From the NCBI GenBank assembly GCA_045401155.1, contig CP174360.1, forward strand, positions 310,769 through 374,768: 64,000 nt of DNA. Reading direction: 5' to 3'. The notes below the pieces were generated by a model that saw nothing but the letters and a program-made list of their open reading frames with translations, was not told where the DNA came from and searched no databases. The translations under genes were made by a program, and so were the position numbers. Source of the DNA: Candidatus Minusculum obligatum. Its GTDB lineage: Bacteria > Patescibacteriota > Minisyncoccia > Phycocordibacterales > Phycocordibacteraceae. Below are positions 8,749 through 49,516 of this stretch, one piece after another. How positions within the stretch are numbered: the first letter of the stretch is position 1; the number at the start of each line of letters is the position of its first letter.

Positions 8749-8824
8749 CAAATACACAATAATTGTGGTATTTTATTGCGGGTTTTGACCCTTCACATTA
8801 ACATTGAAATGGGAGATTTCAATC

Positions 8825-9394
8825 ATGAGCAATGCTCAACAGGCAACTGTTCTGGACCAGATGCAGGCTGAACTGGCGGGGATCGATCTCGGTAACTACG
8901 AGATCAATCCGATGGAAGACGAGGGGTTCGATTCGAACCGCATGATTCACGTCGGTCCGGCGCCCGATCAGGTCAAGCGCCTGATCGTGTTGCGGTATCT
9001 TCTCGAGAAGCAACTCGACCAGGAAAAACGCTTTGGCCACAATGCGGTCGAGGTGTTGCGCAATCTCGGTGGCGACGTTGTCGCGACCGTTCGTGCGGTC
9101 AGGGCTATGAAAGATTTCACGGAAATCGATGAAGCTCTCCAGAACATTGCCGACGCGAACGAGCGGATCAATACGCTCTCGCGTAAGCTCGAGCTTCTGA
9201 ACATCCTGACCCAGGAAGAACTTTCTTGCCATTTCGGCGACAAGATTTCCCGGGTCAAGTTTCAGGGCGGTGAAGCCGCCCTCATGGTGATCCTGTCCGA
9301 CTGGACGGTCGCGACGATGAAGGATGCTGAACGCATTTTCGGTCGTCCTGCCGACGGCTTCATGGAAATGCTTCACGAGGCCATGGGCGGCTAG
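8825..9394 (+). CDS. Hypothetical protein encoded in GC-rich island 1 (foreign codon usage)
   Basis: RBS GGGAG 7 nt upstream of ATG 8825. About 57% GC with high GC3, against about 42% in flanks. Own GC-rich terminator. No family recognised. Confidence 0.6.
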   Translation: MSNAQQATVLDQMQAELAGIDLGNYEINPMEDEGFDSNRMIHVGPAPDQVKRLIVLRYLLEKQLDQEKRFGHNAVEVLRNLGGDVVATVRAVRAMKDFTEIDEALQNIADANERINTLSRKLELLNILTQEELSCHFGDKISRVKFQGGEAALMVILSDWTVATMKDAERIFGRPADGFMEMLHEAMGG

Positions 9395-9417
9395 GCGACC
9401 CACGTCGTCTCCAGAAC

Positions 9418-9458
9418 AAAAAGGTCCCACCAAGTCAGTCTTGGTGGGACCTTTTCTT
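9418..9458. terminator. Rho-independent terminator
   Basis: ggtcccaccaag-tcagt-cttggtgggacc followed by tttt. Confidence 0.8.
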
Positions 9459-10033
9459 TATAGTCCCAGAGTTTGCGTCACCGCGCCTCCATCAGCTTCT
9501 TCCCATGCAGATGTATCAATTTTAATATCCTTAATTTCATTAAGATCTTTCCACTTAATGATCTTATTCTCTTTAGCGTATTCAAAAATATCTTTTGTTA
9601 CTTTTACGTCTTGAAGACAGTACTCACGTACCTTGTCTACTTTTCCTTGCTGCCACCACTCAATAGCTTTAAGCCCATCAGCGCTCTTTCCTTCGCCAAG
9701 CGTTGCTTCAGCTAGGTTGTTGAGACGAATACGTCGTCCAAGAGACCGATGCACATCCTTAAGGAGGTCAATACTTTTAATGCTTGTTAAGTCTCCCGGA
9801 TAGTATTTATTGAGTAGGGGGATATCAAAGGTGTCTGAGTTAAACCCAACGATTGCGTCTGTTGCCTCAAGAAGCGGCCAGAAGTTCTGAAGTTCTTCCA
9901 CAGTGTAGCTGGTGTACTCATCAGTATTGCTGTCATATACGCCCAAGATCGCAATATCAAGCTCTGTTACGTTCTTCTCATTAATATACGGAAGCGTGTC
10001 CGTAGTTTCTATATCAAATACTATGTATCTCAT
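9458..10033 (-). CDS. DEDD-family 3'-5' exonuclease (DnaQ/oligoribonuclease-like)
   Basis: Exo I FDIETT, Exo II GFNSDTFDIPLL, Exo III YCLQD. 4-bp overlap with hisS. Confidence 0.75.
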   Translation of the reverse strand: MRYIVFDIETTDTLPYINEKNVTELDIAILGVYDSNTDEYTSYTVEELQNFWPLLEATDAIVGFNSDTFDIPLLNKYYPGDLTSIKSIDLLKDVHRSLGRRIRLNNLAEATLGEGKSADGLKAIEWWQQGKVDKVREYCLQDVKVTKDIFEYAKENKIIKWKDLNEIKDIKIDTSAWEEADGGAVTQTLGL

Positions 10034-11292
10034 AGTTCTTCGTACAGTAGGTCAATTAGATTTTCCTTTTTAGTTTCCACCTCTTCTCCTGTAGAAATGT
10101 TCTTTAGAGTAATAAGAGACCCCTCAGCCTCATCTTCTCCAAATACTACAAGATTTTGAATGCCTCGCTTCTCAGCATCTTTAATCTGCTTATCAAGCTT
10201 TCGATCAAGAATATTTACGATCACTGAGAGACCTTCATTTCGAAGTTCTTCTGCATACTTTTGTGCAGGTTCAATATTGCTCTCTTGTACCGTTGCGATA
10301 TACAGGTCAGGAGTGGTTAGTGTGTCAGGAAGTAGCTCGTGTGCCTCAAGGAAATCAATAAGACGCATATCACTTAGCGCAAATCCAATTGCAGGCATCT
10401 CATCATTTGAGAAAAGGTTTAGAAGGTTGTCATATCGTCCGCCACCAAGAAACGCTTTTTGGTTCTCGGGATCTGTATCAAAGAACTCAAACACAAAGCC
10501 AGTATAGTAATCAAAACCACGGATAAGTGTCGGGTCGTATACGGCATTTTCTACACCGCGTAACTTGAGATTTTTTATGAATTCTTGTGTTTTTTTAAAT
10601 TCTTTTTGAACCTCTTCATTCGTATTGTTTTCTAGATCTGCTAGGGGATCAGCCATGCCGTTAAAGATGTTTTCAAATTGAGCCTCATATTCACCCTTAT
10701 CCATCTTTGCCTTACGGTCTAGCAGGTGTAGATATGCTTTTTTATCATCATCTGACACTCCAGCAGCTTCACATGCTCGATCAAGTAATGCGCGATTGTT
10801 GATACGGATTGTGTACGCTTCATCTCCTACAGAGAAGGCGCGAAGGAGGTTTCGTGCCATGCTAATGATTTCAAGATCAGCTTCTCCTTCAGGAGCACCA
10901 AGAAGATCCACGTCTACTTGATAGAACTCTCGGCCGCGTCCTTTTTGTGGTCGTTCGTATCGAAAACGATTTCCAATTGAGTACCATCTAATTGGAAGAG
11001 GGAGTTCACGTCGTCGTCTTGCAACCATGCGTGCAAGAGTTGGTGTCATTTCAGGACGAAGAGTTACCTCACGATCTCCACGATCTGCAAATGTATATGT
11101 TTGTTCATTTACAATTTCTTCACTTGTTTTTGTTTTATAGAGCTCAGCGCGCTCAAGAGGAGAAGCGTCATATTCTTGGTATCCTGCACGTGAAAGTACA
11201 CCACGAATAGTGGCAAAGAGTGCTTGTTGGAGTGCCTTATCTTCAGGGTAGAAGTCTCGTACACCCTTATATGGGTCTGTATCTAATTTCAT
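10030..11292 (-). CDS. hisS: Histidyl-tRNA synthetase
   Basis: Class II motifs: RPEMT, RWYSIGNRFRYERPQKGRGREFYQVDVDL, C-terminal anticodon-binding domain. Confidence 0.9.
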   Translation of the reverse strand: MKLDTDPYKGVRDFYPEDKALQQALFATIRGVLSRAGYQEYDASPLERAELYKTKTSEEIVNEQTYTFADRGDREVTLRPEMTPTLARMVARRRRELPLPIRWYSIGNRFRYERPQKGRGREFYQVDVDLLGAPEGEADLEIISMARNLLRAFSVGDEAYTIRINNRALLDRACEAAGVSDDDKKAYLHLLDRKAKMDKGEYEAQFENIFNGMADPLADLENNTNEEVQKEFKKTQEFIKNLKLRGVENAVYDPTLIRGFDYYTGFVFEFFDTDPENQKAFLGGGRYDNLLNLFSNDEMPAIGFALSDMRLIDFLEAHELLPDTLTTPDLYIATVQESNIEPAQKYAEELRNEGLSVIVNILDRKLDKQIKDAEKRGIQNLVVFGEDEAEGSLITLKNISTGEEVETKKENLIDLLYEEL

Positions 11293-11310
11293 ATCTTTAT
11301 TCTACAAATC

Positions 11311-11850
11311 TTACACGCCATGTAAACTTCCTGGCTTTTCTTTTATTACATCCATAATTGCTCTTCGGATTGTTTGTGGGGATCCAACGGTCTGCATGAC
11401 TAGGTCGTGTTGGTGTCCGGCTGTTTCAATATGTACATCTCCAATACCAAAAAGGGTTGGAAAAAGACCATGTATATCTGTCTGTACATCTTGGATACGC
11501 TCAATACGAAAACTGTTTATTTGTCTTGAGAAAAACCCTCGCTGTAATATTCCGATAATTCTCTGGTCTGTAATAATCCAAGTGTCTAGGTAAAAATCAG
11601 TGAGCAGGTGTGTTGCGCCAAACCACAAGAAAAGTAGGAGTAGATTTGCACCTATAAGTACATACTCTTCTGGAAATGCGGGGAATGTAGCATACCCAAG
11701 TGGTGTCCAAATCTCTCCATTAATAAATGCACCTTGTAGTACAAGCGTTAGGTATGCTCCAAATACAAAAGGAAGCATTTGGAACACGAGTACCAAGGGG
11801 TGCCTTCGAATGGTTTTTATGTGCTTTTCTTGTGCGGAAAGTTTAAACAT
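11311..11850 (-). CDS. Membrane protein with bacterial PH-like (DUF304/YdbT-like) domain
   Basis: Two N-terminal TM helices followed by a roughly 100-aa soluble domain. Confidence 0.45.
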   Translation of the reverse strand: MFKLSAQEKHIKTIRRHPLVLVFQMLPFVFGAYLTLVLQGAFINGEIWTPLGYATFPAFPEEYVLIGANLLLLFLWFGATHLLTDFYLDTWIITDQRIIGILQRGFFSRQINSFRIERIQDVQTDIHGLFPTLFGIGDVHIETAGHQHDLVMQTVGSPQTIRRAIMDVIKEKPGSLHGV

Positions 11851-12067
11851 ATGAAAGGCTGCTTACGATTGATCCAATTAGAAATAGTGATACCCCGTAA
11901 TACAGTATAAGTACGATCACCATTCGGATAGGGTTTCGACTATACACTATCCAGTGATAGGTAATAGAGAAAGAGAAGATAATAAAGAAGATAAGCAGTA
12001 CTCCAGAGAGAATGGAAATAACCGGAAGTGTCTGTAGAAAGGTTATAAAAGATGGAAGATCACTCAT
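11843..12067 (-). CDS. Small membrane protein, hypothetical
   Basis: 74 aa, two TM helices, start overlaps the downstream gene. Confidence 0.35.
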   Translation of the reverse strand: MSDLPSFITFLQTLPVISILSGVLLIFFIIFSFSITYHWIVYSRNPIRMVIVLILYYGVSLFLIGSIVSSLSYV

Positions 12068-12792
12068 CCTTTATAGTGTGCCACGGTATAGCGTGATACA
12101 CCATACTGGTCTGTGCGATTCTCTGCGGAAAATGAGGCAGGGAAAAGTTCAAGGATTTCATCCTTTTGTTCTGTGTCGTGCTCTAGATAAAGTGCGCCTC
12201 CCACATGCAGATGCTCATGGAGCTCGTTGATAAGCGTTCGTATATATACGAGACCATCTTCTCCAGCAAAAAGTGCAATAAGTGGCTCAAAATTAATCAC
12301 ACCCTTAGGAAGATCTCGATCCTTTGGGATGTATGGCGGATTAGCAAGGATTACATCAAATGTTCCTTCTACGTTTTTAAAAATATCACTCTCAATAATT
12401 TCAACAGGATTTGAAATGTTGTTTGCTTCAATATTCTTTTTGATAGTTTCTAGGTGTTGCGGATCAAGCTCTGCAAATGTCACGTGATCTTGCGGACGTG
12501 CTTTTGCCCACGCAATACCGAGTGCGCCACTTCCAGCAAAAATATCTAAAACCTTTTTTGGAGACTCATCAGTTTCTTTAATTGCTTGTTCAAGCCAGTA
12601 CTCACTTTCTACACGGGGGATAAGTGGTTTTGAATCAAGGTAGATTGTTGTATTTAAAAACGGAGTATTTCCAATGACATATGCCAAAGGCTCACCATTG
12701 TCTAGGCGTTCTTTATCTTTTTCAAACTCGGCAGTTGGAGTTCCGTCGTACTTTTCTTGCAGCAATTGCTGCTCCTCTCTCGTATCTATCAT
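12064..12792 (-). CDS. prmC: Release-factor glutamine N5-methyltransferase PrmC/HemK
   Basis: SAM motif DIFAGSGALG and catalytic NPPY (ILANPPYIP). Confidence 0.85.
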   Translation of the reverse strand: MIDTREEQQLLQEKYDGTPTAEFEKDKERLDNGEPLAYVIGNTPFLNTTIYLDSKPLIPRVESEYWLEQAIKETDESPKKVLDIFAGSGALGIAWAKARPQDHVTFAELDPQHLETIKKNIEANNISNPVEIIESDIFKNVEGTFDVILANPPYIPKDRDLPKGVINFEPLIALFAGEDGLVYIRTLINELHEHLHVGGALYLEHDTEQKDEILELFPASFSAENRTDQYGVSRYTVAHYKG

Positions 12793-12902: not shown

Positions 12903-13589
12903 ATGTTCGGGATACGAAAGAGATTCCTTGGTTTAGGAATCTTTCTCATTCTAATGCCAATTATTTGGTTTGTTTTAAAGGACGTCATTACACTTGAGAC
13001 GATCCACATGAAGCAGTCTCTGCTTAAGGCATATGTTGCAGAGCACCATATTCTTTCAGTTCTTATCTTTGGAGGTATTTATACGGTGTCTGCAGCACTT
13101 GCCTTTCCACTTGGGGGTATTTTTGTACTTTTAGCAGGATTCTTATTTGGTGCATTTATTGGGACAGTGGTTACCGTGCTTGCGGCAACATTGGGGGGAG
13201 TGATTATTTTCTTACTTACGCGGTATTTCTTTAAAGATTGGGTAGAGAAGCATTATGGAAAGTATCTAGCACCTATTGAAAAGGAGCTTGCAGAGCACCC
13301 AGCATCGTATCTCCTTTTCCTTCGGTTTATGCCAGTGGTTCCATACCTGGTTATTAATGTGGTGCCGGCTTTGGTAAATGTACGGTTCTCTACATTCTTG
13401 TGGACAAGTATTGTGGGGCTGCTTCCAGGAGCGTTTATCTTTGCCCTGGCAGGGAAGGAGCTCTCTCGTATTGCGAGTACGGGAGATGTTTTAACACCGT
13501 CTCTTATTATTTCTTTGTTGTTACTGGCGGGACTTTCGCTTGTTCCCCCAGTGTATAGAAAGTACGCGGCATATAAGAAAAAGCAATAA
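12903..13589 (+). CDS. DedA/TVP38 family membrane protein
   Basis: Typical DedA core: LAGFLFGAFIGTVV, FLRFMPVVPY. Confidence 0.75.
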   Translation: MFGIRKRFLGLGIFLILMPIIWFVLKDVITLETIHMKQSLLKAYVAEHHILSVLIFGGIYTVSAALAFPLGGIFVLLAGFLFGAFIGTVVTVLAATLGGVIIFLLTRYFFKDWVEKHYGKYLAPIEKELAEHPASYLLFLRFMPVVPYLVINVVPALVNVRFSTFLWTSIVGLLPGAFIFALAGKELSRIASTGDVLTPSLIISLLLLAGLSLVPPVYRKYAAYKKKQ

Positions 13590-13596
13590 ACGAAAA

Positions 13597-13621
13597 TCGC
13601 CCATCCCTAGTAGGGATGGGC
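13597..13621. terminator. GC-rich bidirectional terminator hairpin
   Basis: cgcccatccctagtagggatgggcg, at the edge of GC island 2. Confidence 0.7.
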
Positions 13622-13638
13622 GATGGTTTCCTTGGAGT

Positions 13639-13944
13639 TCAGTTGCCCCAGGTCATTTGGCCGAAAAGATTGCCGGTAGCCGTCATGCGACAGATGATGC
13701 CGCCCGCACGAGCACGATTTTCGGAGTCGTACGCAGTGAAGCCGCTAACGACTTCGGTCGTGATGCCATCGACGTGACACGCTTCGATGTCACCTTCGCG
13801 TGCTTCGTGAAGGCGCGTTTCCGCAGCATCGATGTAGTCGGCCGCAACAAGGTGATCTGCAAAGCTTTGCTGGGTGTTTTGTTGCTCTTGGCTGCCACAC
13901 CCACACAGGGTCGTGACCACGAGAATTGTAAGGATCATTTTCAT
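13639..13944 (-). CDS. Small secreted/lipoprotein-like hypothetical protein in GC-rich island 2
   Basis: RBS GGAG upstream of MKMILTILVVTTLCGCGSQ (signal peptide with Cys). About 58% GC against about 42% host. Start at 13944, not ORF-track 14106. Confidence 0.55.
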   Translation of the reverse strand: MKMILTILVVTTLCGCGSQEQQNTQQSFADHLVAADYIDAAETRLHEAREGDIEACHVDGITTEVVSGFTAYDSENRARAGGIICRMTATGNLFGQMTWGN

Positions 13945-14029
13945 CAGAACTTCTCCACTGGATTGATGACTTATGTTAATTATACTATAACATTGACATG
14001 TGTCAAGATATGGTGTATAGTGCGCATAT

Positions 14030-14296
14030 ATGAAAAGTAATCCAGCAGCAATTCGAGAGTGTCTGCAAGGGGATTGTAATGAAATCCTTAAGCAGAGTAT
14101 GCACATGATTGATGGAGATCGGGAGACCGCAACTCTAAATGTATGTGCGATTGATGTTGATGCGGTACTACAAGCTCCTCTAAAGAAAATTGATTATGGA
14201 CGTTTCGCTGAAGTGCCAAAAACAAATATGGTAATTCCACGAAGTCCAAAGGCAGTGAGCTCTCGAGGATTTGTGGCAACACTCTTCAACAAATAA
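14030..14296 (+). CDS. Hypothetical small protein
   Basis: 88-aa ORF in host-like composition, no clear RBS. Confidence 0.3.
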   Translation: MKSNPAAIRECLQGDCNEILKQSMHMIDGDRETATLNVCAIDVDAVLQAPLKKIDYGRFAEVPKTNMVIPRSPKAVSSRGFVATLFNK

Positions 14297-26825: not shown

Positions 26826-26902
26826 TTTCTCTAGGATACCAAGGTTCGGAAATCCTCTACAGGGTATTAAAAAATAGCCCGTCAAATAAGGCTATTTTTG
26901 CT

Positions 26903-27162
26903 GGCTCCGTATATATGATGAAATCCGAATGTATTTCAGACGGAGTCTGAAATGAACGGCGAGAGCGCGTGGTACCTCGCACGTAAACCTCCGCAAGGTG
27001 ATTTCCTACTAGCTCCCGCACCCGCACGCCTCGCTGTACTCGCCGTGCACAAATAGAATCCTTCTTTGCACTTTTATCCTTTCCCGCGCCCCCATTTTTT
27101 GGGAAATAGGGAAAAGAAGTTTCTATTTGCCTTCTGCTTCGCGCAGAAGGGGTGCTTGTGCC
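26903..27162 (+). repeat. Core GGCTCCG + Y repeat, copy A (internally diverged)
   Basis: Shares 5' (TATATATGATGAAATCCGAATGTATTTCAGACGGAGTCTGAAATGAACGG) and 3' (TTTCCCGCGCCCCCATTTTTTGGGAAA...CCTTCTGC..GCAGAAGG) segments with copies at 28360, 30015 and 41075(rc). Confidence 0.85.
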
Positions 27163-27217
27163 TCGTATATAAAAGTGTTGCCCCACCTGGGAGGGTGGGG
27201 CAAGACGCTTCTCGTTA

Positions 27218-27448: not shown

Positions 27449-27745
27449 TTATCGCTTGTCAGTTCTGATGCCGTGGCTTGCTCGACAGGTGAGAAAGCAT
27501 AGGTTTCGAACTGCATCTTCCGGTAGTCTGCTCCAGCCCGTGAAGACGATATCTTCTTCGTGAGCCTGAAACATTGCGAGAAATCCCTCGCCATCATCAC
27601 CGCGCCGTCTCCGCGCACGGTGTTTCCTGACGATAATTTCTCCGTATCTTCCATTGACCATCTTTCGAAGCCAACGTTGTCTGCGCCTATGGCTTTGGGG
27701 TTTCATCCCTGCGCCATGAGCGAGAGCAAGGAATACATCCGGCAT
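27449..27745 (-). CDS. Hypothetical basic 98-aa protein, GC-rich island 3, gene A
   Basis: Strong RBS GGAGGG 5 nt before ATG. Arg-rich segment HRRRQRWLRK...RKHRARRRRG. About 55% GC. Confidence 0.5.
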   Translation of the reverse strand: MPDVFLALAHGAGMKPQSHRRRQRWLRKMVNGRYGEIIVRKHRARRRRGDDGEGFLAMFQAHEEDIVFTGWSRLPEDAVRNLCFLTCRASHGIRTDKR

Positions 27746-28313: not shown

Positions 28314-28359
28314 TAAAAAAAGTATAGCAAAACCTCCCAAAAGGAGGCCTGTACTGCCT

Positions 28360-28616
28360 GGCTCCGTATATATGATGAAATCCGAATGTATTTCAGACGG
28401 AGTCTGAAATGAACGGCGAGAGCCGGTGGTACATCAGACATACACCTCCGCGAGGTGATCTCCACATACTTTCCGCACCGCACGACTCGCTCCGCTCGCC
28501 GTGCACAAATAGAATCCTTCTTTGCACTTTTATCCTTTCCCGCGCCCCCATTTTTTGGGAAATAAGGAGAAAGAAGTCTCTATTTGCCTTCTGCTCCACA
28601 GAAGGGGTGCTTGTGC
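28360..28616 (+). repeat. Core GGCTCCG + Y repeat, copy B
   Basis: Nearly identical to copy C. 35-bp palindrome at 28382-28416. Confidence 0.85.
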
Positions 28617-29821: not shown

Positions 29822-29910
29822 TGTTATTGTATTAAAATTTAATAATTGTATGAATGGTAGACTAATTACAGTATATCACTAAGTCTATAGCTTAAATCTT
29901 GTTTTTTGGT

Positions 29911-30270
29911 GGACAAACGAGTGTCCTTTTTCTTCAAAACCCCCTGGGAAATCCTTGCAAATTTCCCCCTTCAGAATTTGGGAAATCTCCCAAAATCTGA
30001 ACTCTGTACTATCCGGCTCCGTATATATGATGAAATCCGAATGTATTTCAGACGGAGTCTGAAATGAACGGCGAGAGCCGGTGGTACATCAGACATACAC
30101 CTCCGCGAGGTGATCTCCACATACTTTCCGCACCGCACGACTCGCTCCGCTCGCCGTGCACAAATAGAATCCTTCTTTGCACTTTTATCCTTTCCCGCGC
30201 CCCCATTTTTTGGGAAACAAGGAGAAAGAAGTTTCTATTTGCCTTCTGCTTCGCAGAAGGGTGCTTGTAC
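29911..30270 (+). repeat. Intact X-core-Y unit, copy C (direct orientation)
   Basis: X has three hairpins (ggaca..tgtcc; gggaaat..atttccc; attttgg..ccaaaat). Core GGCTCCG is at 30015-30021. Y follows, with its palindrome at 30037-30071. Confidence 0.85.
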
Positions 30271-30390
30271 CTCCAGGTATGTGTCTACTTCCTCTAGAGA
30301 AGCAAAATGCACTTTCCAGAGCCTCTAGCGAGGCTTCCAAACGCTTCAATTACACCAATTGAAGCGTTTGAGGGGAAAGTGCGTTAGAAG

Positions 30391-33580: not shown

Positions 33581-33585
33581 TGCTA

Positions 33586-33858: not shown

Positions 33859-33862
33859 ATAT

Positions 33863-34690: not shown

Positions 34691-34701
34691 AATTAGATAA
34701 T

Positions 34702-35172: not shown

Positions 35173-35186
35173 CAAATAATATTCTC

Positions 35187-36140: not shown

Positions 36141-36142
36141 TT

Positions 36143-36289: not shown

Positions 36290-36290
36290 C

Positions 36291-36548
36291 ATGATTAAAG
36301 TAACGCTTGTTCGTCCAGAAGGGTGTCATCATTGTAAGGAGGTTAAAAATACGCTTGAGGGAATGAGAGATGAATTTCCTGATATTTCAATTGAAGAAAT
36401 TGATATGGTTACACCTGAAGGAAGGGAGCTTGTTCAAAAATATCGCATTCTATCAAGTCCGGGGATTTTAATTAATGATGAATTCTTTGCTTTTGGTGGC
36501 GCTACTGAGGAGCAGTTTAGAAAAAAGTTTAACGAAATTAATGGCTAG
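36291..36548 (+). CDS. Small thioredoxin/glutaredoxin-fold protein (CHHC active site)
   Basis: MIKVTLVRPEGCHHCKEVK. Start at ATG 36291 rather than ORF-track TTG 36243. Confidence 0.6.
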   Translation: MIKVTLVRPEGCHHCKEVKNTLEGMRDEFPDISIEEIDMVTPEGRELVQKYRILSSPGILINDEFFAFGGATEEQFRKKFNEING

Positions 36549-36562
36549 GCCCGATAAAGAAA

Positions 36563-37276: not shown

Positions 37277-37279
37277 CGT

Positions 37280-37960
37280 ATGGTATTTGAAACAACAATT
37301 AAAGGACGTAAAAAAGTTGCAAAAGGTACTTGCGAAATAACTTTCAAAAGACCCGAGAAATTTGTATTTAAAGCAGGGCAATATATACAAATTGCCATAC
37401 CAGAATTACTCAAGTCAGATTTAAGGGGTAATTCACGACTATTCTCTGTCACTTCATCTCCGGATGATATAGAAAATATCCGCGTAGTTTTTAGAGTCTC
37501 TAATAGTGGGTTTAAACAAACACTGGTAAGCATGCCAGTTGGTGCAACGGTACATATTGAACAGGCTGCTGGAAGTTTTGTTTTACCGCAATCACCAAAA
37601 CAGCAACAAATTTTTGTTGCTGGCGGTGTTGGCATCTCTCCATTTATGAGTTACTTCAATCAAAAGAACACTCCATTTGAGAATGGACAGATCATTCTTT
37701 TTTATGGAAATCAAAACGAAGAAAGTGCCGCATACATTGCTGAGCTTCGCTCTTTTGCAAAGAGGTATCAATCTTTTTCACTACAAGAGCTGTATGAAAG
37801 ACCTTCCTCTGAATTCTTTAGGAGAAATGCGCAAATGTATAAAAATGCCGCATGGTGGGTGGTTGGGCCACCGGCAATGGTTGGAGTTGTTGTAAACGGA
37901 CTTCAATTAGGAGGTGTGGACCAAAATAATATTATAACTGAACCCTTTGAAGGATATTAG
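37280..37960 (+). CDS. FNR-like FAD/NAD(P)H oxidoreductase domain protein
   Basis: RLFSVTS (RxYS FAD motif), GGVGISPF (NAD motif). Confidence 0.6.
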   Translation: MVFETTIKGRKKVAKGTCEITFKRPEKFVFKAGQYIQIAIPELLKSDLRGNSRLFSVTSSPDDIENIRVVFRVSNSGFKQTLVSMPVGATVHIEQAAGSFVLPQSPKQQQIFVAGGVGISPFMSYFNQKNTPFENGQIILFYGNQNEESAAYIAELRSFAKRYQSFSLQELYERPSSEFFRRNAQMYKNAAWWVVGPPAMVGVVVNGLQLGGVDQNNIITEPFEGY

Positions 37961-37964
37961 ATAT

Positions 37965-38735
37965 ATGAAAAATACTTTAGGATTAATTGTTTTTATTCTC
38001 GTGCTTGTTGCACTAACTGCAATATTTTTTCTGAATGGCAGAAATACAGAAGTAACACCCGATGAAACATTTTCTATATCTGCTCAGGATATCAAAGACC
38101 AAATTACCATTGATCGTGTTGTTATGGACCAGCCAGGATTTATTGTGGCACGAGAAATTATAGATGGAAAACCGGGGCAGATAGTGGAAGTAAGTAAGTA
38201 TTTAAAGGTGGGTGAAAATGTTGATGTTGTTATAGGTCTTGCACAACCATTAATTGAGGGGGTTGGTGTGAGCAGTGATCAATTTGATCAAGAAATTGTT
38301 GTTGCTGTGTATTATGATGATGGAGATAAGGGGTTTAATCCGTCTCTTGATTCTCTTGCGTATCGTGCAGGAGAAGTGCTCGCACGGTTTGTCAAAACAG
38401 GAATAATGGCGCCTGAGTCAGCAGTGGTGCCAAACACTAAGGGTGAAAATATTGATGTTGCTCAAATAGTTACCTATACAGACAGTGGGTTTATTCCTCG
38501 GAACAGTGAAATTTCTCCTGGTGATACTGTTCGATTTATTAATAAGAGCAGTAATCAAATGTGGGTTGCTTCAAATGGGCACCCAGCGCATATGATACTT
38601 CCAACATTTGATCAGTTCAGTGCTTCTTCATATGGTGAAAGTTATGAATACACTTTTGAAAAAGAGGGGGTGTGGGAGTATCACGATCACATAAATGCTA
38701 GCCAGGTTGGTGTCATATTAGTTCATTCAAATTAA
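37965..38735 (+). CDS. Secreted hypothetical protein with C-terminal cupredoxin-like beta domain
   Basis: TM/signal N-terminus. C-terminal His residues (NGHPAH, YHDH), no Cys. Confidence 0.45.
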   Translation: MKNTLGLIVFILVLVALTAIFFLNGRNTEVTPDETFSISAQDIKDQITIDRVVMDQPGFIVAREIIDGKPGQIVEVSKYLKVGENVDVVIGLAQPLIEGVGVSSDQFDQEIVVAVYYDDGDKGFNPSLDSLAYRAGEVLARFVKTGIMAPESAVVPNTKGENIDVAQIVTYTDSGFIPRNSEISPGDTVRFINKSSNQMWVASNGHPAHMILPTFDQFSASSYGESYEYTFEKEGVWEYHDHINASQVGVILVHSN

Positions 38736-38740
38736 ATTAC

Positions 38741-39211
38741 ATGCAAAATACAATAAATATTTGGGGAGTGTCTGCCATTATTGGCATAACTATTCTATTG
38801 ATTGGTGGCGTCGCGCTATTGCCAAAATCTCCTGCGGGAGGGGGAGACGCTGTTGCTGCGGGACTCCATTGGCATCCCGAATTACAAATTTTTGTTGATG
38901 GAGAGAAGCAGCAAATTCCAGCAAATATAGGACTTGGTGGTGGCGGACATCAGCCAATACATACGCATACAGAAGACGTTGGGCAAGGAGTTCTTCACTT
39001 TGAATTTGGAGGAGTTGCCTATACAGGAGATCTCCGTTTGGGAAACTTCTTCCGTATTTGGGGAAATAAAGATATACAAACAGCGTTTGGCGTACTTGAA
39101 CAAATGATAGTAAATGGAGAAGAAAGCAGTGAATTTGGAGAATATGTTGTGCAAAGTGAAGACAAAATAGAGCTCCACTACAAGACTTTATTGCAGGGAG
39201 AGGTTATGTAG
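38741..39211 (+). CDS. His-rich putative metal-binding secreted protein
   Basis: TM anchor. LHWHPELQIFVDGEKQQIP, HQPIHTHTED, LHFEF. Confidence 0.45.
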   Translation: MQNTINIWGVSAIIGITILLIGGVALLPKSPAGGGDAVAAGLHWHPELQIFVDGEKQQIPANIGLGGGGHQPIHTHTEDVGQGVLHFEFGGVAYTGDLRLGNFFRIWGNKDIQTAFGVLEQMIVNGEESSEFGEYVVQSEDKIELHYKTLLQGEVM

Positions 39212-39254
39212 GCATGTTACTATTACTTAAATAAAAAAATAAAATATTGTTACT

Positions 39255-39980
39255 ATGGAAGAAAAAAAGAAAGAAGGGATGAATTTGGCAGTTCCGGGTG
39301 CGATTATGTTTGCTGGAATACTTATCGCTGGTGCACTAGTGTTCTCTTCACTGCAAAGCAGTGGGGGACAGCAAGTAGCTGAAGAGGCTCCACAAGACGC
39401 AGGGTCTCTTGACGCAATGGATCCAGTGTCAGAAAAAGATCACGTTCGAGGGAATCCAAATGCTCCAGTTATGATTGTTGAGTATTCAGACTATGAATGT
39501 CCTTTCTGTAAGCGCTTCCATGAGACCCTGAACCAGGTTATGGATACATATGGTGCTGAAGGAAAAGTTGCGTGGGTATATCGGCACTTTCCTCTTGACC
39601 AACTCCATCCAGTAAAAGCTCGGCAAGAAGCCGCAGCAGCAGAATGTGTTGCTGAAATTGGTGGAGATGACATGTTTTGGAGGTTCTCAGATAGATTCTT
39701 TGAACTTACGCCATCTAACAATCAAACCGACCTCACTGTGGTTCTTCCACAAATTTATTCTGAGTTAGGTCTTTCGCAGGCAAAGGTGGATGAGTGTGTT
39801 GCAAGTGGAAGGTATGATGATCATATTCAAGCTGAGTTTGAAAATGCTGTGGCAACTGGAGGTCGTGGTACGCCGTGGAGTATTCTGATAGCTGCAGACG
39901 GTACAAAGTACCCACTCTCTGGCGCACAACCTCTTAGTGCTATAAATCAGCTTATTGAACTTGGATTAGGAAACAACTAG
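39255..39980 (+). CDS. DsbA-like thiol:disulfide oxidoreductase, paralog 3
   Basis: TM anchor, CPFC, same architecture as the other two paralogs. Confidence 0.8.
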   Translation: MEEKKKEGMNLAVPGAIMFAGILIAGALVFSSLQSSGGQQVAEEAPQDAGSLDAMDPVSEKDHVRGNPNAPVMIVEYSDYECPFCKRFHETLNQVMDTYGAEGKVAWVYRHFPLDQLHPVKARQEAAAAECVAEIGGDDMFWRFSDRFFELTPSNNQTDLTVVLPQIYSELGLSQAKVDECVASGRYDDHIQAEFENAVATGGRGTPWSILIAADGTKYPLSGAQPLSAINQLIELGLGNN

Positions 39981-39984
39981 TCTT

Positions 39985-40506
39985 ATGGAGAAGCAAAGAA
40001 TATTCGCATATATTCTTATTGGAGCCATCATTTCTTTCATTGTTTTTTCTCTTGCTGTATTTCTTCCAAACCTTACTCTTGTATGGACGATAGCAAATTC
40101 TCCTGCTTTGTTAGGTGAAAAATTTGCACTGCTTGTGAGTTTATATGGTGCTATTGGAACAAACTTTACATTTCTTGCAGCGGGGTACACCATTTTGATG
40201 TCTCTCTTGTTTGGCTTAAATGTCGCACTGCTGATTTATCTTGTGCGTAGCAGGAGTGTTGGTGCTGTTGGTAAAAATGCCGCAGTTAGTATAGGGGGTC
40301 TTATAAGTGGAATACTGGGTGTTGGGTGTGCTGCTTGCGGCACATTTATTCTCTCAGCAATGCTTGGGCTTGTGGGTGCAGCGGGACTACTCGCGCTATT
40401 GCCACTTGGTGGAGAAGAGTTTGGAATAGTGGGAGTTATTTTGCTTGCCTATACAACATATGCACTGATCAAAAAAATTCGTGAACCAAATGTTTGCAGT
40501 GTTTAG
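39985..40506 (+). CDS. Membrane protein with intramembrane CAAC motif
   Basis: 4 TM helices, GVGCAACGTF in TM3. Possible DsbB/VKOR-analogous role is speculative. Confidence 0.45.
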   Translation: MEKQRIFAYILIGAIISFIVFSLAVFLPNLTLVWTIANSPALLGEKFALLVSLYGAIGTNFTFLAAGYTILMSLLFGLNVALLIYLVRSRSVGAVGKNAAVSIGGLISGILGVGCAACGTFILSAMLGLVGAAGLLALLPLGGEEFGIVGVILLAYTTYALIKKIREPNVCSV

Positions 40507-40515
40507 ATAATTAGT

Positions 40516-41001
40516 ATGGATATACTCATTATATTTCTTGGAAGCTATTTGCATTTCTTCATTATTGCAACAGCTTTATTAAGTGTTATTTTTGCATCTT
40601 CAAAAATACGTCTAGAATACATCTCTTTCTTAATTTTTGTTGGGCTGCTTGCTTATTTGTTAGGAGAGTTAGTTGGTATGGTTGTATATAATCCGCGACC
40701 TTTTGTTGTCTTGGATGTTGTTCCACTTATTCCTCATGATCCAACGAACGGATTTCCTTCTACGCATGCACTTGTTTCTATAAGCATTGCTTTTGCTGTG
40801 TTTATCTTTAACAAGAAACTTGGATTTATACTTTTCTTGTTTGGAATACTTGTTGGTGTTGGTCGTATTTTTGCTCAAATACACAGTGTTGAAGATGTTC
40901 TTGGGAGCATTGTTGTGTCGCTTGTAGCAGTATGTGCGGGGCTATTTGTTAAAAAGGTTTTTAGAAAACTCAAGGAGCAGAAGATTCTCATGAAATTTTA
41001 A
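40516..41001 (+). CDS. PAP2-superfamily phosphatase
   Basis: PAP2 motifs RPF, PSTH, GRIFAQIHSVEDV. Confidence 0.7.
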   Translation: MDILIIFLGSYLHFFIIATALLSVIFASSKIRLEYISFLIFVGLLAYLLGELVGMVVYNPRPFVVLDVVPLIPHDPTNGFPSTHALVSISIAFAVFIFNKKLGFILFLFGILVGVGRIFAQIHSVEDVLGSIVVSLVAVCAGLFVKKVFRKLKEQKILMKF

Positions 41002-41074: not shown

Positions 41075-41392
41075 GCACAAATAGAAGTCCGTCATTTGCC
41101 CTTTCCCAAAAAATGGGGGCGCGGGAAAGGATAAAAGTGCAAAGAAGGATTCTATTTGTGCACGGCGAGCGGAGCGAGTCGTGCGGTGCGGAAAGTATGT
41201 GGAGATCACCTCGCGGAGGTGTATGTCTGATGTACCACCGGCTCTCGCCGTTCATTTCAGACTCCGTCTGAAATACATTCGGATTTCATCATATATACGG
41301 AGCCGGATAGTACAGAGTTCAGATTTTGGGAGATTTCCAAAATTCTGAAGGGGGAAATTCGCAAGGATTTCCCAGGGGGTTTTGAAGGAAGC
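41075..41392 (-). repeat. Y-core-X unit, copy D (inverted relative to copy C)
   Basis: Reverse complement matches Y over about 205 bp (palindrome at 41248-41282), core at 41298-41304, and X over about 90 bp. Confidence 0.85.
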
Positions 41393-41410: not shown

Positions 41411-42904
41411 ATGAGATTCTTTTTATACATACGCAAATCAACCGATGAGGATGATAGGCAGATATTGTCGCTTGAAGCGCAAGAATTTGAATTGAAGCAG
41501 TTGGCTTCGCAAGAGCAAATAGAGATAGTAGAGGTGTTTCGAGAGTCACAGACTGCAAAAGAACCAGGGCGGAAAGTTTTTAATGAAATGCTCTTGCGAA
41601 TAGAGAATGGGGAAGTTGATGGAATTCTATCGTGGCATCCGGATAGATTGGCACGCAATAGTGTAGATGGCGGACGTATTATTTATTTAGTGGATGCGGG
41701 GAAGATACAATTCCTCAAATTCCCAACATTCTGGTTTGAGCCAACGCCTCAAGGCAAATTCATGCTGAACATTGCTTTTGGTCAGTCGAAATATTTTGTT
41801 GATAATCTTTCAGAGAATACTCGTCGTGGACTTCGTCAAAAATTGCGCCGTGGCGAATGGCCGGGACCAGCACCCATTGGCTATCTAAACGATAAGTTAG
41901 GTCACACTATTGTGCTGGATCCCGAGCGTGCGCCACTTCTGCAGAAGTTGTTTGAGAAATATGCAGAGGGGAATTATTCTCTGAAAGATTTACAAAATAT
42001 TGCAAAGTCTATTGGCTTGTTTAGTAGGGGAGGAAAGGTGTTATCTGTTTCGCTTATTCAAAACATCCTCTCCAATCCTTTTTATTATGGAGTTATGAGA
42101 TATGGAGGAGAATTGTATGAAGCAAAACACGAGCCTTTGATTTCTAAGAAACTGTTTGATTCCATTCAGAAGATAATGGCTAGCAAGTCGAGACCTCGCA
42201 AACATGGAGAGGTAGAGTATCCACTGCGTGGATTATTTGAGTGTGGCGAGTGCTCGTGCGCCATTACTTCTGAAATGCAAAAAGGACATCATTATTATCG
42301 CTGCACGAAAAAGCGTGGCGCTTGCTCGCAAAAATATCTTCGAGAAGAGCTTTTGGTTGAGCAGGTTGATGATGTCCTTTCAAACGTTTCTATACCTGAT
42401 TCGTGGGCAGAGGAGATGCTCGTGAGATTGGATGAGGAGAAGGAGTCTGAGGAGAGAGAAACTTCTCTGTATGCTCAAAAATTAAGAGACGATATTGCAT
42501 CTTTTGATCTCAAGCTTGATGCACTTCTAGATACTTATTTAGAGAAAAGTATTTCAAAAGAGGAGTATCAGAGCAAAAAGCAAAAACTGTTAGATCAAAA
42601 GATAGATTTGCAGGAGAAATTAGACTCAATTTCGCATACAGGAAGTTTCTGGCTCGAACCGATGCGAAACTTAATTTTAGATAGTAAACAAGCCAAATAT
42701 ATTGCTTCACAAAAATCTCTCTTCGAGAAGAGAGATTTTTGCAAAAAGGTTGGCTCGAACCTTGTTTTAGTGGACAAACGAGTGTCCTTTTTCTTCAAAA
42801 CCCCCTGGGAAATCCTTGCGAATTTCCCCCTTCAGAATTTTGGAAATCTCCCAAAATCTGAACTCTGTACTATCCGGCTCCGCGGACAGGATTCGAACCT
42901 GTGA
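41411..42904 (+). CDS. Large serine recombinase (resolvase-domain integrase)
   Basis: N-terminal YIRKSTDEDDRQILSLEAQ with catalytic Ser. Recombinase domain, zinc ribbon CGECSCA...YYRC, coiled coil. ORF runs through repeat X and stops inside the tRNA 3' end. Confidence 0.85.
   Translation: MRFFLYIRKSTDEDDRQILSLEAQEFELKQLASQEQIEIVEVFRESQTAKEPGRKVFNEMLLRIENGEVDGILSWHPDRLARNSVDGGRIIYLVDAGKIQFLKFPTFWFEPTPQGKFMLNIAFGQSKYFVDNLSENTRRGLRQKLRRGEWPGPAPIGYLNDKLGHTIVLDPERAPLLQKLFEKYAEGNYSLKDLQNIAKSIGLFSRGGKVLSVSLIQNILSNPFYYGVMRYGGELYEAKHEPLISKKLFDSIQKIMASKSRPRKHGEVEYPLRGLFECGECSCAITSEMQKGHHYYRCTKKRGACSQKYLREELLVEQVDDVLSNVSIPDSWAEEMLVRLDEEKESEERETSLYAQKLRDDIASFDLKLDALLDTYLEKSISKEEYQSKKQKLLDQKIDLQEKLDSISHTGSFWLEPMRNLILDSKQAKYIASQKSLFEKRDFCKKVGSNLVLVDKRVSFFFKTPWEILANFPLQNFGNLPKSELCTIRLRGQDSNL
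42772..42890 (+). repeat. X repeat + core GGCTCCG, copy R, abutting the tRNA 3' end
   Basis: Identical to X in copy C. Inverted relative to X in copy D, so the recombinase gene is bracketed by roughly 100-bp inverted repeats. Confidence 0.85.
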
Positions 42905-43495
42905 CCTGCCGGTTACGCTTGATCCCACTATTTCTAGGGGTGCGGACTATATCATCACCCATCTTGCGATTAGGGTGGAAGGCGCTTCCCAAAGCTTTCG
43001 CTCCAGTACTCCCGTAAGGGATAGTCTCTGAACCTTCCTCGTGAGAGGCTTGGCTGCTGATTACCTGCAACATTACTTGCTAAGGCTTCCAGCAATTCAC
43101 CTTCTTTTCAACCTAAGTTTCCTTAGGAGGCTGCGTGGTGCCTGCGTGCAGTTCTGCGTGGCAATTTGCGCAAACAAGAATACATTTATCAAGTTCTTTT
43201 TGGATTTTCTCCCAAGAACGAGTTAGTCCTCTTGCTGATAATCCAAAATCTTTTTGCTTTGGATCTTTGTGATGAAAGGCAAGCGCTTGCTTACATTTTT
43301 TATATCCACAAATTTTGCATTTACCACCTCCGTATTCAAGAGCTTTGTTGCGAAGTTCCTTTCGTCGCTTTGCAACTGCCTTGCGGAGATATTCTGCACG
43401 GTCAGCGTATGTTCTTTTATCTGGCATACACATATGTAGTATACCAGAGGAACATGCGTTCACAGCCGGATGCTCTACCGCTGAGCTACCGCGGA
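42886..43495 (-). tRNA. tRNA (Asn-GUU if spliced by group I rules; His-GUG if co-linear) split by a ~538-nt anticodon-loop intron
   Basis: Exon 1 (43495..43462) is TCCGCGGTAGCTCAGCGGTAGAGCATCCGGCTGT. Exon 2 (42923..42886) is TAACCGGCAGGTCACAGGTTCGAATCCTGTCCGCGGAG. Acceptor stem is 7/7, D-arm and T-arm (GGTTCGAATCC) are canonical, discriminator is G. Confidence 0.75.
43113..43433 (-). CDS. Intron-encoded HNH homing endonuclease
   Basis: CKICGYKKCKQALAFHHKDPKQKD...CANCHAELH (HNH with two zinc knuckles). Lies wholly inside the tRNA intron. ORF-track N-terminal extension to 43571 rejected. Confidence 0.75.
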   Translation of the reverse strand: MCMPDKRTYADRAEYLRKAVAKRRKELRNKALEYGGGKCKICGYKKCKQALAFHHKDPKQKDFGLSARGLTRSWEKIQKELDKCILVCANCHAELHAGTTQPPKET

Positions 43496-45254: not shown

Positions 45255-45750
45255 GTTGTTCTAGGTTTTCTGCATGATCAATAAACAAAATACCATCTAA
45301 ATGATCAATTTCATGCTGATATGCCTGCGCCAGGATTCCGCCTCCGCCACGAGTAAACCAGTTCCCATCAGCATCTTGTGCTTTTACAGTCGCGCGCTCG
45401 TATCTTTTTGTTGTCCCAAAAATCCCATCCACAGAAAGGCAGCCTTCAGGCATCTCAGTCTTCTTTCGAGATGTCTTAACAATAGTTGGATTTATAAAAA
45501 CACCAACCTCTGGCTCTGCTTCTTTTTCTTCTTGAGGAGGGAGCATTCGATCATATCGCACAATAAAAATACGATATGGAATTGCAATTTGTGGTGCAGC
45601 GAGTGCCACGCCATATTCTTTTGCATTAAGAGATGCTTCCATTTGGGCAAGCATGTCCTTTAGTTTGTCAGATCCAAAAAGGTCTGCGGGAACCTCTTTT
45701 GCAGTTTCTCGCAGCACCTCGTCTTCGCCTTCTTGTACAATCGGCTTCAT
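45244..45750 (-). CDS. def: Peptide deformylase
   Basis: EGCLSV and QHEIDHLDG motifs. def-fmt operon. Confidence 0.9.
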   Translation of the reverse strand: MKPIVQEGEDEVLRETAKEVPADLFGSDKLKDMLAQMEASLNAKEYGVALAAPQIAIPYRIFIVRYDRMLPPQEEKEAEPEVGVFINPTIVKTSRKKTEMPEGCLSVDGIFGTTKRYERATVKAQDADGNWFTRGGGGILAQAYQHEIDHLDGILFIDHAENLEQHER

Positions 45751-45762
45751 ATTTTGAGTATA

Positions 45763-46045
45763 AACAAAAAAGCCACCTATGCATAGGTGGCAAAAGGGCC
45801 AGGTGAGGTGACCAGAGAACTCGCGCTACCAAGGCGAGGGTTCAAAGGAAGCACGTGCTTCTGGCCACCTCGGGGCGCACAGGAGAAGTATATCATAGAA
45901 GAAAGGGCGGAAAACGTTGTGGAGGGCACACAGCGTTTTCCGCCCAGAGGCGAGCGCATCAGGCTCAGTCACGAAACCTTTGCGCTCGCGCGGTGCCCGT
46001 CTGCGGGGGGAGATTGCAAACGGGCGGCCTGGATCCATACTACGC
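45763..46045 (-). ncRNA. GC-rich structured RNA candidate ending in an intrinsic terminator (identity unresolved)
   Basis: About 58% GC over about 285 nt with no credible ORF. Minus strand ends with GCCACCTATGCATAGGTGGC + T6 at 45763-45791. Long internal stems such as ggcggaaaacg/cgttttccgcc. Confidence 0.45.
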
Positions 46046-46065
46046 CTTTAGGTTAGAATTGCAAT

Positions 46066-46353
46066 ATGGAGCACATTGGCGCAAATCTTCCAGAATTTAA
46101 ACAAGAAAAAACACGTAAGACAGAGCGGGGAGAGCTTATGGTGTATTTTTGTGCGAAATTAAATGCTTCAAGAGAAAAAGATGGATTAAAACCTCTTTCT
46201 ATGGGGCGTATGGGTATGCTTTTGCAGGGTATCCCTACGAAAGACCTCTATTATTTAAAAAGTATTTGTGAACAAGCAAAACACTTTTCTAAAAAGTTTT
46301 GGTGGGAAATTAATCCAAAAAATCACGACGGGAAGCAATTTGGACAGAAGTAA
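46066..46353 (+). CDS. Hypothetical protein
   Basis: 95-aa basic protein upstream of murA. Confidence 0.4.
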   Translation: MEHIGANLPEFKQEKTRKTERGELMVYFCAKLNASREKDGLKPLSMGRMGMLLQGIPTKDLYYLKSICEQAKHFSKKFWWEINPKNHDGKQFGQK

Positions 46354-48680: not shown

Positions 48681-48685
48681 AAGGA

Positions 48686-48711
48686 AAAGGGCGGGTCCAA
48701 AGACTCGCCCT
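48686..48711. terminator. Bidirectional terminator
   Basis: aagggcgggtc-caaa-gactcgccctt. Confidence 0.7.
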
Positions 48712-48738
48712 TTCGTATTGCTTTGCTTACGACCTGTT

Positions 48739-49434
48739 TTACCAGGTGCGGCTCACGCTCGCTCCGTAGGTCACGTGATGTGCTTCCGGTCCGGAGGGAT
48801 TGAATCCACCGACAGAAAGCGTGAGTGACCAGTTCTCGAAAGACCGTGTCGTCGAAGCTTCCCATCGTGGAGACGTGTAGTCCGAATCGGTACTGTGCGT
48901 GACGCCCAGAAGCATATTGGTGCTCCAGCTCTCACTGACCGTATGATTCCAGCTCGCGGCGGTGCGCCACAAGTTGGTTTCAATCAGGCCGGTGAGTTGA
49001 TCAGCGCCGAGCATCAGGTTGATGCTGTTGTTGGCGTCGATCTCGATCGTGTCACTCACCGTGGCGCGGAATCGGATGATGTCCGTGCCGGTAAAGTCGA
49101 GGTCGCCGACATTGGGAGTCGGAATATCGAACAACGAGATCGAGGCACTGCAGGAAAGGTTCCCGCACGCGCCTGCCCAGCCGACAGTGTAGTCAACCTC
49201 ACGGCCCTGGACATTTCCATCGAGCGCTTCAGAGCGCCAGTAGTCAAGGAAGAATCCATTCCCGTAGGAGGTAGTGATGCCGCCTTGAAGAACGGGTTCG
49301 TCGTATTGGGTGAAGCCGAACTCCGAGAAGGAGTAATCCGACTTCACACCGACGTAGATCGTGAGTTCTTGAGCGCTCGCTGTCGAGCCAAGAAGCGCAA
49401 CAGCAGCAAGCATGGTAAGGATCGTTTTCATCAC
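48739..49434 (-). CDS. Proteobacterial-type outer-membrane beta-barrel protein (TIGR02001/MipA-like) in GC-rich island 4
   Basis: Signal peptide. LTIYVGVKSDYSFSEF...GFFLDYWRSE. Alternating amphipathic strands, C-terminal W. About 58% GC. Confidence 0.6.
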   Translation of the reverse strand: MMKTILTMLAAVALLGSTASAQELTIYVGVKSDYSFSEFGFTQYDEPVLQGGITTSYGNGFFLDYWRSEALDGNVQGREVDYTVGWAGACGNLSCSASISLFDIPTPNVGDLDFTGTDIIRFRATVSDTIEIDANNSINLMLGADQLTGLIETNLWRTAASWNHTVSESWSTNMLLGVTHSTDSDYTSPRWEASTTRSFENWSLTLSVGGFNPSGPEAHHVTYGASVSRTW

Positions 49435-49516
49435 ATCCCCCTTTCTATATGGTCTGATGAATTGTTAATATTATAACATAAAATACATAAAAATCAATAT
49501 ATAGTAGAATGGTCAT

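Follow-up and report, generated by a model that had tools for sequence, protein, structure and literature searches.

The question raised by this locus is how several short, sharply bounded islands rich in guanine plus cytosine (GC) came to lie in the compact genome of Candidatus Minusculum obligatum. The window analysed is a stretch of 64,000 nucleotides (nt) of contig CP174360.1, and all positions refer to it. A sequence-only reading had described four such islands, at 8.8, 13.6, 27.2 and 48.7 kb (here I1, I2, I3 and I4), as self-contained transcription units inserted cleanly into intergenic spacers, and had pointed either to repeated small horizontal gene transfer (HGT) events or to artefacts. 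The explanation favoured here, with moderate confidence, is that the islands represent small accessory units of transcription whose codon composition is GC-rich and of a foreign type, and that they entered intergenic spacers at different times. In the best reading, the spacers of this compact genome have received small gene acquisitions again and again, an already known phenomenon of which this is a new instance. The HGT explanation is nevertheless incomplete, as it has to accommodate the lack of donors, one non-ameliorating island, one mobile-element cargo and one RNA-like unit.

The GC content of the whole window is 41.9%. A 400-nt GC profile and a robust outlier scan in 300-nt windows (median GC 0.417, robust standard deviation (sd) 0.040, threshold at least +3 robust sd) agreed on the same regions, with only five strong outliers in the 64 kb (robust z 3.4-4.4). 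All four islands of the sequence-only reading were confirmed among them and stood out from the host distribution when GC was calculated exactly, while a fifth region, the non-coding I5 at 45751-46065, had been overlooked. In their correct frames the open reading frames (ORFs) of the islands have a GC of 0.525-0.566. Their GC at third codon positions (GC3) lies +4.4 to +10.8 sd from the host mean (0.337, sd 0.034, maximum 0.405, n=37). The share of glycine, alanine, arginine and proline (GARP) is 0.23-0.28 in four of the five island ORFs and 0.38 in the 98-amino-acid (aa) ORF of I3, compared to 0.24 in the host. The GC excess is mainly synonymous, because the amino acid composition is ordinary in those four ORFs. 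Relative synonymous codon usage correlated with the host at -0.43 to -0.05 for the island ORFs and at 0.77 for host genes, while the codon usage of I1, I2 and I4 was mutually similar (r 0.50-0.69). The comparison of GC3 and codon usage bore out the high-GC codon usage claimed earlier, and the islands deviate from the host in both composition and codon usage, as is looked for in a horizontally acquired gene.

Islands I1, I2 and I4 each carry a Shine-Dalgarno (SD)-like motif, a sigma-70-like promoter, a single ORF and a terminator hairpin that is among the strongest of its region (Table 1). The description as a self-contained unit with ribosome binding site and terminator could be upheld for these three, for which SD, promoter and hairpin were all found, but not for I3, which is composite. 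Three host genes, inspected by eye at 13993-14032, 45751-45770 and 46050-46068, lack an SD and have their -10 box just 6-9 nt before the ATG, an arrangement suggestive of leaderless mRNAs; the 5' untranslated regions (UTRs) with SD in the island genes are possibly another foreign signature. I2 and I4 share 18 of 19 nt over the start codon and the first six codons (13928-13946 and 49415-49433; MKMILT and MKTILT, preceded by TG), the only notable boundary match between islands; it may have arisen by chance or hint at a common origin.

Comparison with relatives allowed the presence of the islands to be followed. The window belongs to a contig of 578,798 bp (a roughly 0.58-Mb Patescibacteria genome), to which NCBI entries 100% identical to island proteins are assigned. 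Its host genes, which include UppP, HisRS, EPSP synthase, MreB, RRF and PBP, and its nearest relatives put it close to Wolfebacteria within Patescibacteria. Three relatives (L001, L002 and L003), about 72% identical in nucleotide sequence, are collinear with it. None of the three has I1 or I2, and the spacers are 40-66 bp long in the relatives compared: L002 has 40 bp in place of the 715 bp of I1 in the window, and 66 bp in place of the 465 bp of I2. I2 is also absent from the closer relative L064. In junction alignments the host stop codons at the island edges are intact, and so is the host promoter of the gene downstream of I2 (13993-14021), which is conserved in L001 and L002. I1 and I2 therefore combine patchy presence with intact empty sites. 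For I4 no empty site was seen, as it is present at all five loci examined. Clean insertion into a spacer, as proposed before, is thus supported for I1 and I2; I4 offers no empty site and I3 is composite. Orthologues of I4 occupy the same syntenic position, between holB and mreB, in L062, L063, L065, L068 and L069, and an orthologue of I1 the same position in L064, between uppP and the exonuclease gene. These orthologues are diverged (55-83% aa identity) and yet GC-rich (47.5-57% in genomes of 42-45% GC).

Judged by presence and absence, I4 would be the oldest acquisition (at least five lineages), I1 intermediate (L064 only) and I2 the youngest (window lineage only). Entry was probably by DNA uptake and illegitimate recombination, a route proposed because no mobile-element scars were found: I1, I2, I4 and I5 have no common boundary repeats, target-site duplications or inverted repeats, and no mobility genes nearby. 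The architectural regularity could reflect survivorship. In a gene-dense genome only insertions into spacers would spare genes, and only units that carry or gain their own promoter and terminator would be both expressed and harmless to their neighbours. Two other vehicles were rejected. Integron cassettes do not fit, with no shared stretch of at least 12 nt at the 3' ends, ordinary T-run terminators and a recombinase of the large serine type only; for elements that target terminators, neither shared repeats nor cognate enzymes were found.

I3 would have arrived otherwise, as cargo in tandem integrations of a serine-recombinase element at a tRNA-Thr gene. Its left half is a copy of a repeat (X), the whole lies inside a mobile-element array, and the idea of a simple spacer insert had to be given up for it: I3 is mobile-element cargo with putative ORFs, not a clean single-gene insert. 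A recombinase, a tRNA attachment (att) site and flanking repeats occur together only in this array (26.9-42.9 kb).

I4 is old and inherited rather than recent, and its GC-richness is not merely a residue of recent transfer. According to the amelioration model of Lawrence & Ochman (1997), as cited in PMC12455944, foreign GC3 decays toward the composition of the recipient. This was examined for the window, L062 and L065 with 1064 four-fold degenerate sites in nine flanking genes. At these flank sites the memory of the strong (G or C) or weak (A or T) state is 0.10-0.11 (95% confidence interval 0.04-0.175, n=1064). Nucleotide identity at four-fold sites is 0.37-0.45 in I4 and 0.43-0.45 in the flanks, i.e. 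turnover is equal. For I4, the GC at four-fold sites (GC4) is 0.735 in the window, 0.673 in L062 and 0.49 in L065, compared to 0.28-0.31 for the flanks. Neutral amelioration from the common ancestor onwards cannot account for I4, because decay from a single copy would demand an impossible ancestral GC4 of 1.2-1.7 for two of the lineages. The copies in L068 (GC3 0.46) and L065 (GC4 0.49) fit partial decay, whereas those of the window and L062 remain at GC4 0.67-0.74 despite synonymous turnover at flank level, which is incompatible with neutral decay. Some force would thus keep the GC of I4 high: selection could act on synonymous sites or on the structure of the mRNA, or repair or conversion could be biased. 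The standard view of amelioration is contradicted by an island that stays about 40 points above the genome GC4 while its synonymous sites turn over to saturation, and I4 offers a tractable test case for what sets local base composition in bacteria.

The protein encoded by I4 matched the Pfam family Gcw_chp (PF09694) with 25.3 bits (cut-off 24, E=1.8e-5) over residues 18-113 only. The AlphaFold2 model (predicted local distance difference test (pLDDT) 83.5, predicted template modelling (TM) score 0.76) consists of a helix at 2-13 followed by 14 strands, forming an all-beta barrel. All Foldseek matches in PDB were outer-membrane channels (probability 1.00, TM about 0.55-0.60), with the COG4313 channel, FapF, NanC, KdgM and OmpG at the top, and sequence identity to solved porins was 7-14%. 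Among 5.8 billion clusters six homologous proteins were found. They have 86 invariant columns, and all six end in the C-terminal W or F (RTW, RSW or RTF) typical of the beta-signal of outer-membrane proteins. With its signal peptide and predicted transmembrane beta-barrel fold, the model portrays I4 as a predicted Sec-exported, porin-type beta-barrel of outer-membrane type with 12-14 strands. The AT-rich promoter, SD and start of the gene are kept across lineages. The protein shares signal peptide, barrel and C-terminal aromatic residue with TorF/Gcw_chp proteins (PF09694, TIGR02001), COG4313, NanC, KdgM and OmpG. Its Pfam score is just above the gathering score. It differs from TorF/Gcw_chp porins in an NCBIfam score far below the cut-off, and in being encoded by a lineage of the Candidate Phyla Radiation (CPR), whose described members are monoderm (PMC8871954).

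In the product of I2 the signal peptide contains a lipobox-like LCGC; this protein is a singleton ORFan in the database and is predicted from these features to be a small exported lipoprotein-like peptide. At least two islands, I4 and I2, are thus predicted to encode envelope or surface proteins. The product of I1 is predicted from its sequence to be a soluble alpha-helical ORFan protein; its AlphaFold2 model (pLDDT 39.5) is unusable. It may further be, although this is a doubtful proposition, that the GC-rich state is actively maintained in CPR accessory units by the forces named above, acting locally, and that the I4 porin, which keeps its signal peptide and C-terminal beta-signal in a lineage expected to have no outer membrane, is exported to act on the outer membrane of the Gram-negative host or to insert into it, and so serves the episymbiont as a conduit for nutrients. 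In Patescibacteria, a conserved porin-type barrel with an intact targeting signature of outer-membrane proteins bears on the nature of their envelope and on how episymbionts tap their hosts.

In the case of I5, no gene insert is involved: it is a hairpin-rich, fast-evolving non-coding (RNA-like) unit at a conserved position. Its layout is the same in four lineages, with a TTGCA(A/T)-16/17-TAnnAT promoter-like motif, long GC-rich hairpins and a terminator before def, and its folding z-scores in these are -10.1, -7.9, -7.3 and -6.8. No Rfam match was found at E<=1 (45500-46300). A small protein gene was considered and rejected, no ORF being conserved across the four lineages.

For repeated small HGT events as the origin of the islands speak the foreign-like composition, the patchy presence and the units' own expression signals; the lack of a donor and the age of I4 do not fit as easily. 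Individual gene transfers and small genomic islands into Patescibacteria have been documented (PMC12455944). Several results count against the favoured explanation. No donor or close homologue outside Patescibacteria was found for any island in 5.8 billion clusters, 1.8 billion representatives, plasmids, phages and viral contigs, a surprising outcome for I2 as the youngest of them. The assignment of I4 to TorF is weak (TIGR02001 of NCBIfam at 21.6 bits, cut-off 47.15). The mRNA of I1 is unusually structured (mean z -3.1 compared to -0.6), so that a role at the RNA level is possible, and the I3 ORFs lack support as coding genes. The amelioration test, finally, comprises 49 island sites only and uses a crude two-state model.

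The searches behind this were broad. When 1.8 billion representatives were searched exhaustively, I1 and I2 were ORFans, except for the L064 orthologue of I1 (P0008, 83% aa identity); homologues of I1 number two proteins. Nesting in a foreign clade was not observed, and detectable homologues were either in CPR contexts or lacking. Searches of the island ORFs, including alternative-frame and antisense ORFs, against Pfam, NCBIfam, PHROGs and PADLOC gave only Gcw_chp for I4. The tblastn searches against plasmids and phages and the scans of viral contigs gave no island matches, and a PDB sequence search with I1 and I4 gave none either. A phage origin of the window was rejected after megablast of 25 kb against phages gave no match.

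The first rival explanation holds that the islands are native: lineage-specific genes would have arisen de novo in spacers which, like I5, are GC-rich and full of hairpins, with GC kept by selection on RNA or DNA structure. Its premise is that stop codons are rare in GC-rich spacers, so that long ORFs arise by chance. The ORFan status of I1 and I2 is consistent with such a birth, as are the structured I1 ORF, the long ORFs on both strands of I1 and I4, the long-term maintenance of GC, and the existence of I5-type spacers that are GC-rich, extremely structured (z -6.8 to -10.1) and fast-evolving in four lineages. However, I4 matches an established outer-membrane beta-barrel family and fold, so that this island at least did not arise de novo, and I1 behaves as an established coding gene: in the comparison with L064 both indels are of 3 nt and in-frame, and substitutions are in excess at the third codon position (22:18:37 by codon position). 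Furthermore, I1 and I2 differ between relatives as presence or absence of the whole unit, not as gradual growth of a spacer. De novo birth is therefore considered unlikely.

It is improbable, too, that I1, I2 and I3 are mainly structured RNAs like I5 with incidental ORFs. The z-scores of minimum free energy are indeed below background in I4 (-2.25) and I5 (-4.4) as well as in I1 (given above), and the I3 ORFs are unannotated. Compared to L064, conservation at four-fold sites is higher in I1 than in the flanks (0.80 against 0.55-0.60), while the I1 protein is less conserved than the flank proteins (0.83 against 0.87-0.96). The 5' 330 nt of I1, including the promoter, are about 99% identical to L064 and adjoin a highly diverged patch; the conservation pattern suggests that lineages have recombined or that the nucleotide sequence itself is constrained. 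Against incidental ORFs stand the properly spaced SD motif at every ORF, the signal peptides of I2 and I4, the absence of Rfam matches, and the in-frame indels and codon-position pattern of I1, while a covariation test of I1 (RNAalifold) on two sequences was uninformative by construction. The terminator stem of I1 has compensatory changes in L064. In the 5' UTR of I1 (8803-8824) a possible 7-bp hairpin (TTGAAAT/ATTTCAA) holds the SD GGGAG in its loop right before the ATG, and its sequence is identical in L064.

The high GC could also be re-supplied, if the episymbiont took up DNA from a GC-rich (proteobacterial) host and its genes were repeatedly replaced by host homologues. The Gcw_chp/TorF family of I4 is typical of Proteobacteria, and the mosaic of I1, with its nearly identical 5' part beside a diverged patch, and the undecayed GC of I4 would agree with such replacement. 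This is very improbable, as the six I4 homologues are in CPR-type contexts or unplaced (0/6 in a GC-rich genome), the host-like AT-rich promoter junction of I4 is conserved, and recombination requires flanking homology that a foreign donor lacks.

Hardly any credit can be given to the other option of the sequence-only reading, that the islands are artefacts of assembly, or were joined to the contig as contaminating pieces or as engineered cassettes: sharp composition steps and cassette-like units (SD, strong terminator and the 12/12 promoter of I2) would agree with it, but the contig that carries the window is 578,798 bp long, the start region of I4 and its promoter are kept across lineages, no vector-like, plasmid or phage matches were found, and chimeric assembly, contamination and engineering are excluded because the diverged, GC-rich I4 and I1 orthologues hold identical positions, with the same junctions, in five independent datasets (ERR2191545, SRR15322238, SRR33375167, SAMN07571245 and JGI 3300005731) and assemblers. 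The islands are genuine chromosomal features of a tiny Patescibacteria (CPR) genome.

As acquired units, the islands resemble the transferred genes and genomic islands of Patescibacteria (PMC12455944) in their atypical composition, patchy distribution and occurrence in streamlined CPR genomes, and in the tie of I3 to a recombinase and a tRNA. They differ in that I1, I2 and I4 are single ORFs with full expression signals and without mobility genes, in that no donor is detectable, and in that one unit, I4, is old, syntenic and not ameliorated. As accessory genes that are laterally acquired or ORFan, the islands form a clean, well-bounded case from a symbiont with a streamlined genome, and they carry the warning that sharp GC steps in CPR metagenome-assembled genomes are not necessarily contamination.

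Table 1. Features of the GC-rich islands and of the tRNA-Thr array (positions in the window; promoter scores are matches out of 12).
Feature	Position	Strand	Remarks
I1 GC run	8801-9500		maximum 0.573; 300-nt scan
I1 promoter-like site, TTGACA-18-TATTTT with TG	8745..8774	+	10/12; 97-100% conserved in L064
I1 ORF, 189 aa, ACJKSS_01785	8825..9394	+	GC 0.56, GC3 0.70; SD GGGAGA 8811-8816
I1 terminator, 16-pair hairpin	9419..9455	+	adjoins stop codon of convergent exonuclease gene
I2 GC run	13551-13950		maximum 0.567; 300-nt scan
I2 terminator hairpin, 13 pairs then T-run	13596..13624	-	
I2 ORF, 101 aa, ACJKSS_01820	13639..13944	-	GC3 0.60; SD GGAGAAG 13950-13956
I2 promoter, TTGACA-16-TATAAT	13979..14006	-	12/12; back-to-back overlap with host promoter 13993-14021
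I3 GC run	27101-27600		maximum 0.55; 300-nt scan
I3 left half, repeat X copy c1	26886..27164	+	arm (attL-type junction) of tRNA-targeting integrative element
I3 terminator hairpin	27178..27203	-	
I3 ORF b, putative, 69 aa	27218..27427	-	GC3 0.63; SD GGAGAG 27433-27438
I3 ORF a, putative, 98 aa, basic	27449..27745	-	GC3 0.485; SD GGAGGG 27750-27755
Repeat X copy c2	28330..28614	+	
Flank repeat F and full-length repeat X copy c3	29904..30384	+	F 29904-30021; c3 29929-30384
Repeat X copy c4, inverted	41078..41390	-	99% identical to 29929-30217
Large serine recombinase (Resolvase + Recombinase + Zn_ribbon_recom)	41411..42904	+	3' end abuts tRNA 3' end
tRNA-Thr(CGU) with 546-nt group I intron	42876..43495	-	att site of array; ARAGORN intron mode
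I5 GC run	45701-46100		maximum 0.563; 300-nt scan
I5 hairpin-rich non-coding unit	45772..46064	-	between def and 95-aa gene
I5 promoter-like site, TTGCAA-16-TAGTAT	46064-46037	-	8/12
I5 terminator	45791-45772	-	just upstream of def
I4 GC run	48701-49450		maximum 0.59; 300-nt scan
I4 terminator, bidirectional	48686..48713	+	common to mreB
I4 ORF, 230 aa, TorF/Gcw_chp-like beta-barrel	48739..49431	-	GC3 0.69; SD GGGGGA 49436-49441
I4 promoter, TTGATT-16-TATAAT with TG	49470..49497	-	10/12; conserved in four lineages
Marginal GC run	53751-54050		within host mreB gene; 300-nt scan

The array that holds I3 is centred on the tRNA-Thr(CGU) gene, which was missed by standard ARAGORN and detected in intron mode. 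Its intron was recognized by Rfam (RF00028, 71.6 bits, core 42924-43197) and carries an HNH-type endonuclease-like ORF at about 43113-43433. An Rfam-supported group I intron is what this tRNA has in common with bacterial tRNAs that carry such introns in the anticodon loop, while the HNH ORF sets it apart. Repeats of the X/F family, also present at 42765-42882, are 87-99% identical and lie in direct and inverted orientation around the serine recombinase, while X occurs once in the relative L070. From their sequence, the junctions of F, GGCTCCG and X look like the remains of tandem (and inverted) integrations at the tRNA-Thr 3' end. As in other tRNA-targeting elements with large serine recombinases, a Resolvase/Recombinase/Zn-ribbon enzyme abuts the tRNA 3' end, with X and F marking the apparent tandem integrations; the repeats here differ in being long (118-370 nt), one of them inverted, and I3 is the only island tied in. 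The 289-bp inverted X pair (99% identity) flanks about 11 kb and could permit inversion of the intervening segment.

The I3 ORFs are absent from the NCBI protein set and had no family matches in Pfam, NCBIfam, PHROGs or PADLOC. Rfam gave only chance-level matches for I3 and repeat X (26700-27900 and 29900-30500). An identity of repeat X or I5 as tmRNA, RNase P, 6S or SRP RNA was rejected, with no support from Rfam or ARAGORN. The I3 ORFs lie between two shikimate-kinase paralogues (26301-26825 and 27801-28340, both on the minus strand), the duplication of which seems linked to tandem element insertions; a metagenome scan with shikimate kinase found no relatives. Further along the array, 8.1 kb (32879-40967) are 95.1% identical to L070 (12067-20163), whereas identity elsewhere is about 72%. 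This segment carries envelope redox and disulfide functions (rhodanese/DUF1573, DsbD, ferric-reductase-like, DsbA-like thioredoxin, PAP2), and its identity level indicates a probable recent exchange of a mobile segment between lineages. The adjoining AT-rich block at 30385-32878 (GC 30-35%) is absent from L070 and has four ORFs, one matching the phage DNA-binding family phrog_2391; it forms a low-GC counterpart to the GC-rich islands.

Lineage-specific units were also seen in the relatives. L001 holds a different, AT-rich two-gene insert of 1.5 kb in the uppP-exonuclease spacer (10806-12303) instead of I1, and the spacer is therefore a recurrent insertion point. In L064 (6486-6998) and L062 (5202-5678 and 15010-15579), lineage-specific genes of moderately high GC are present. 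Among them are a protein (52% GC) of the GcrA family, a family typical of Alphaproteobacteria, and an ORF of 158 aa that has a TTGACA promoter, SD and GC-rich terminator. The units of L062 follow the same design as the islands, with promoter, SD, ORF and GC-rich terminator.

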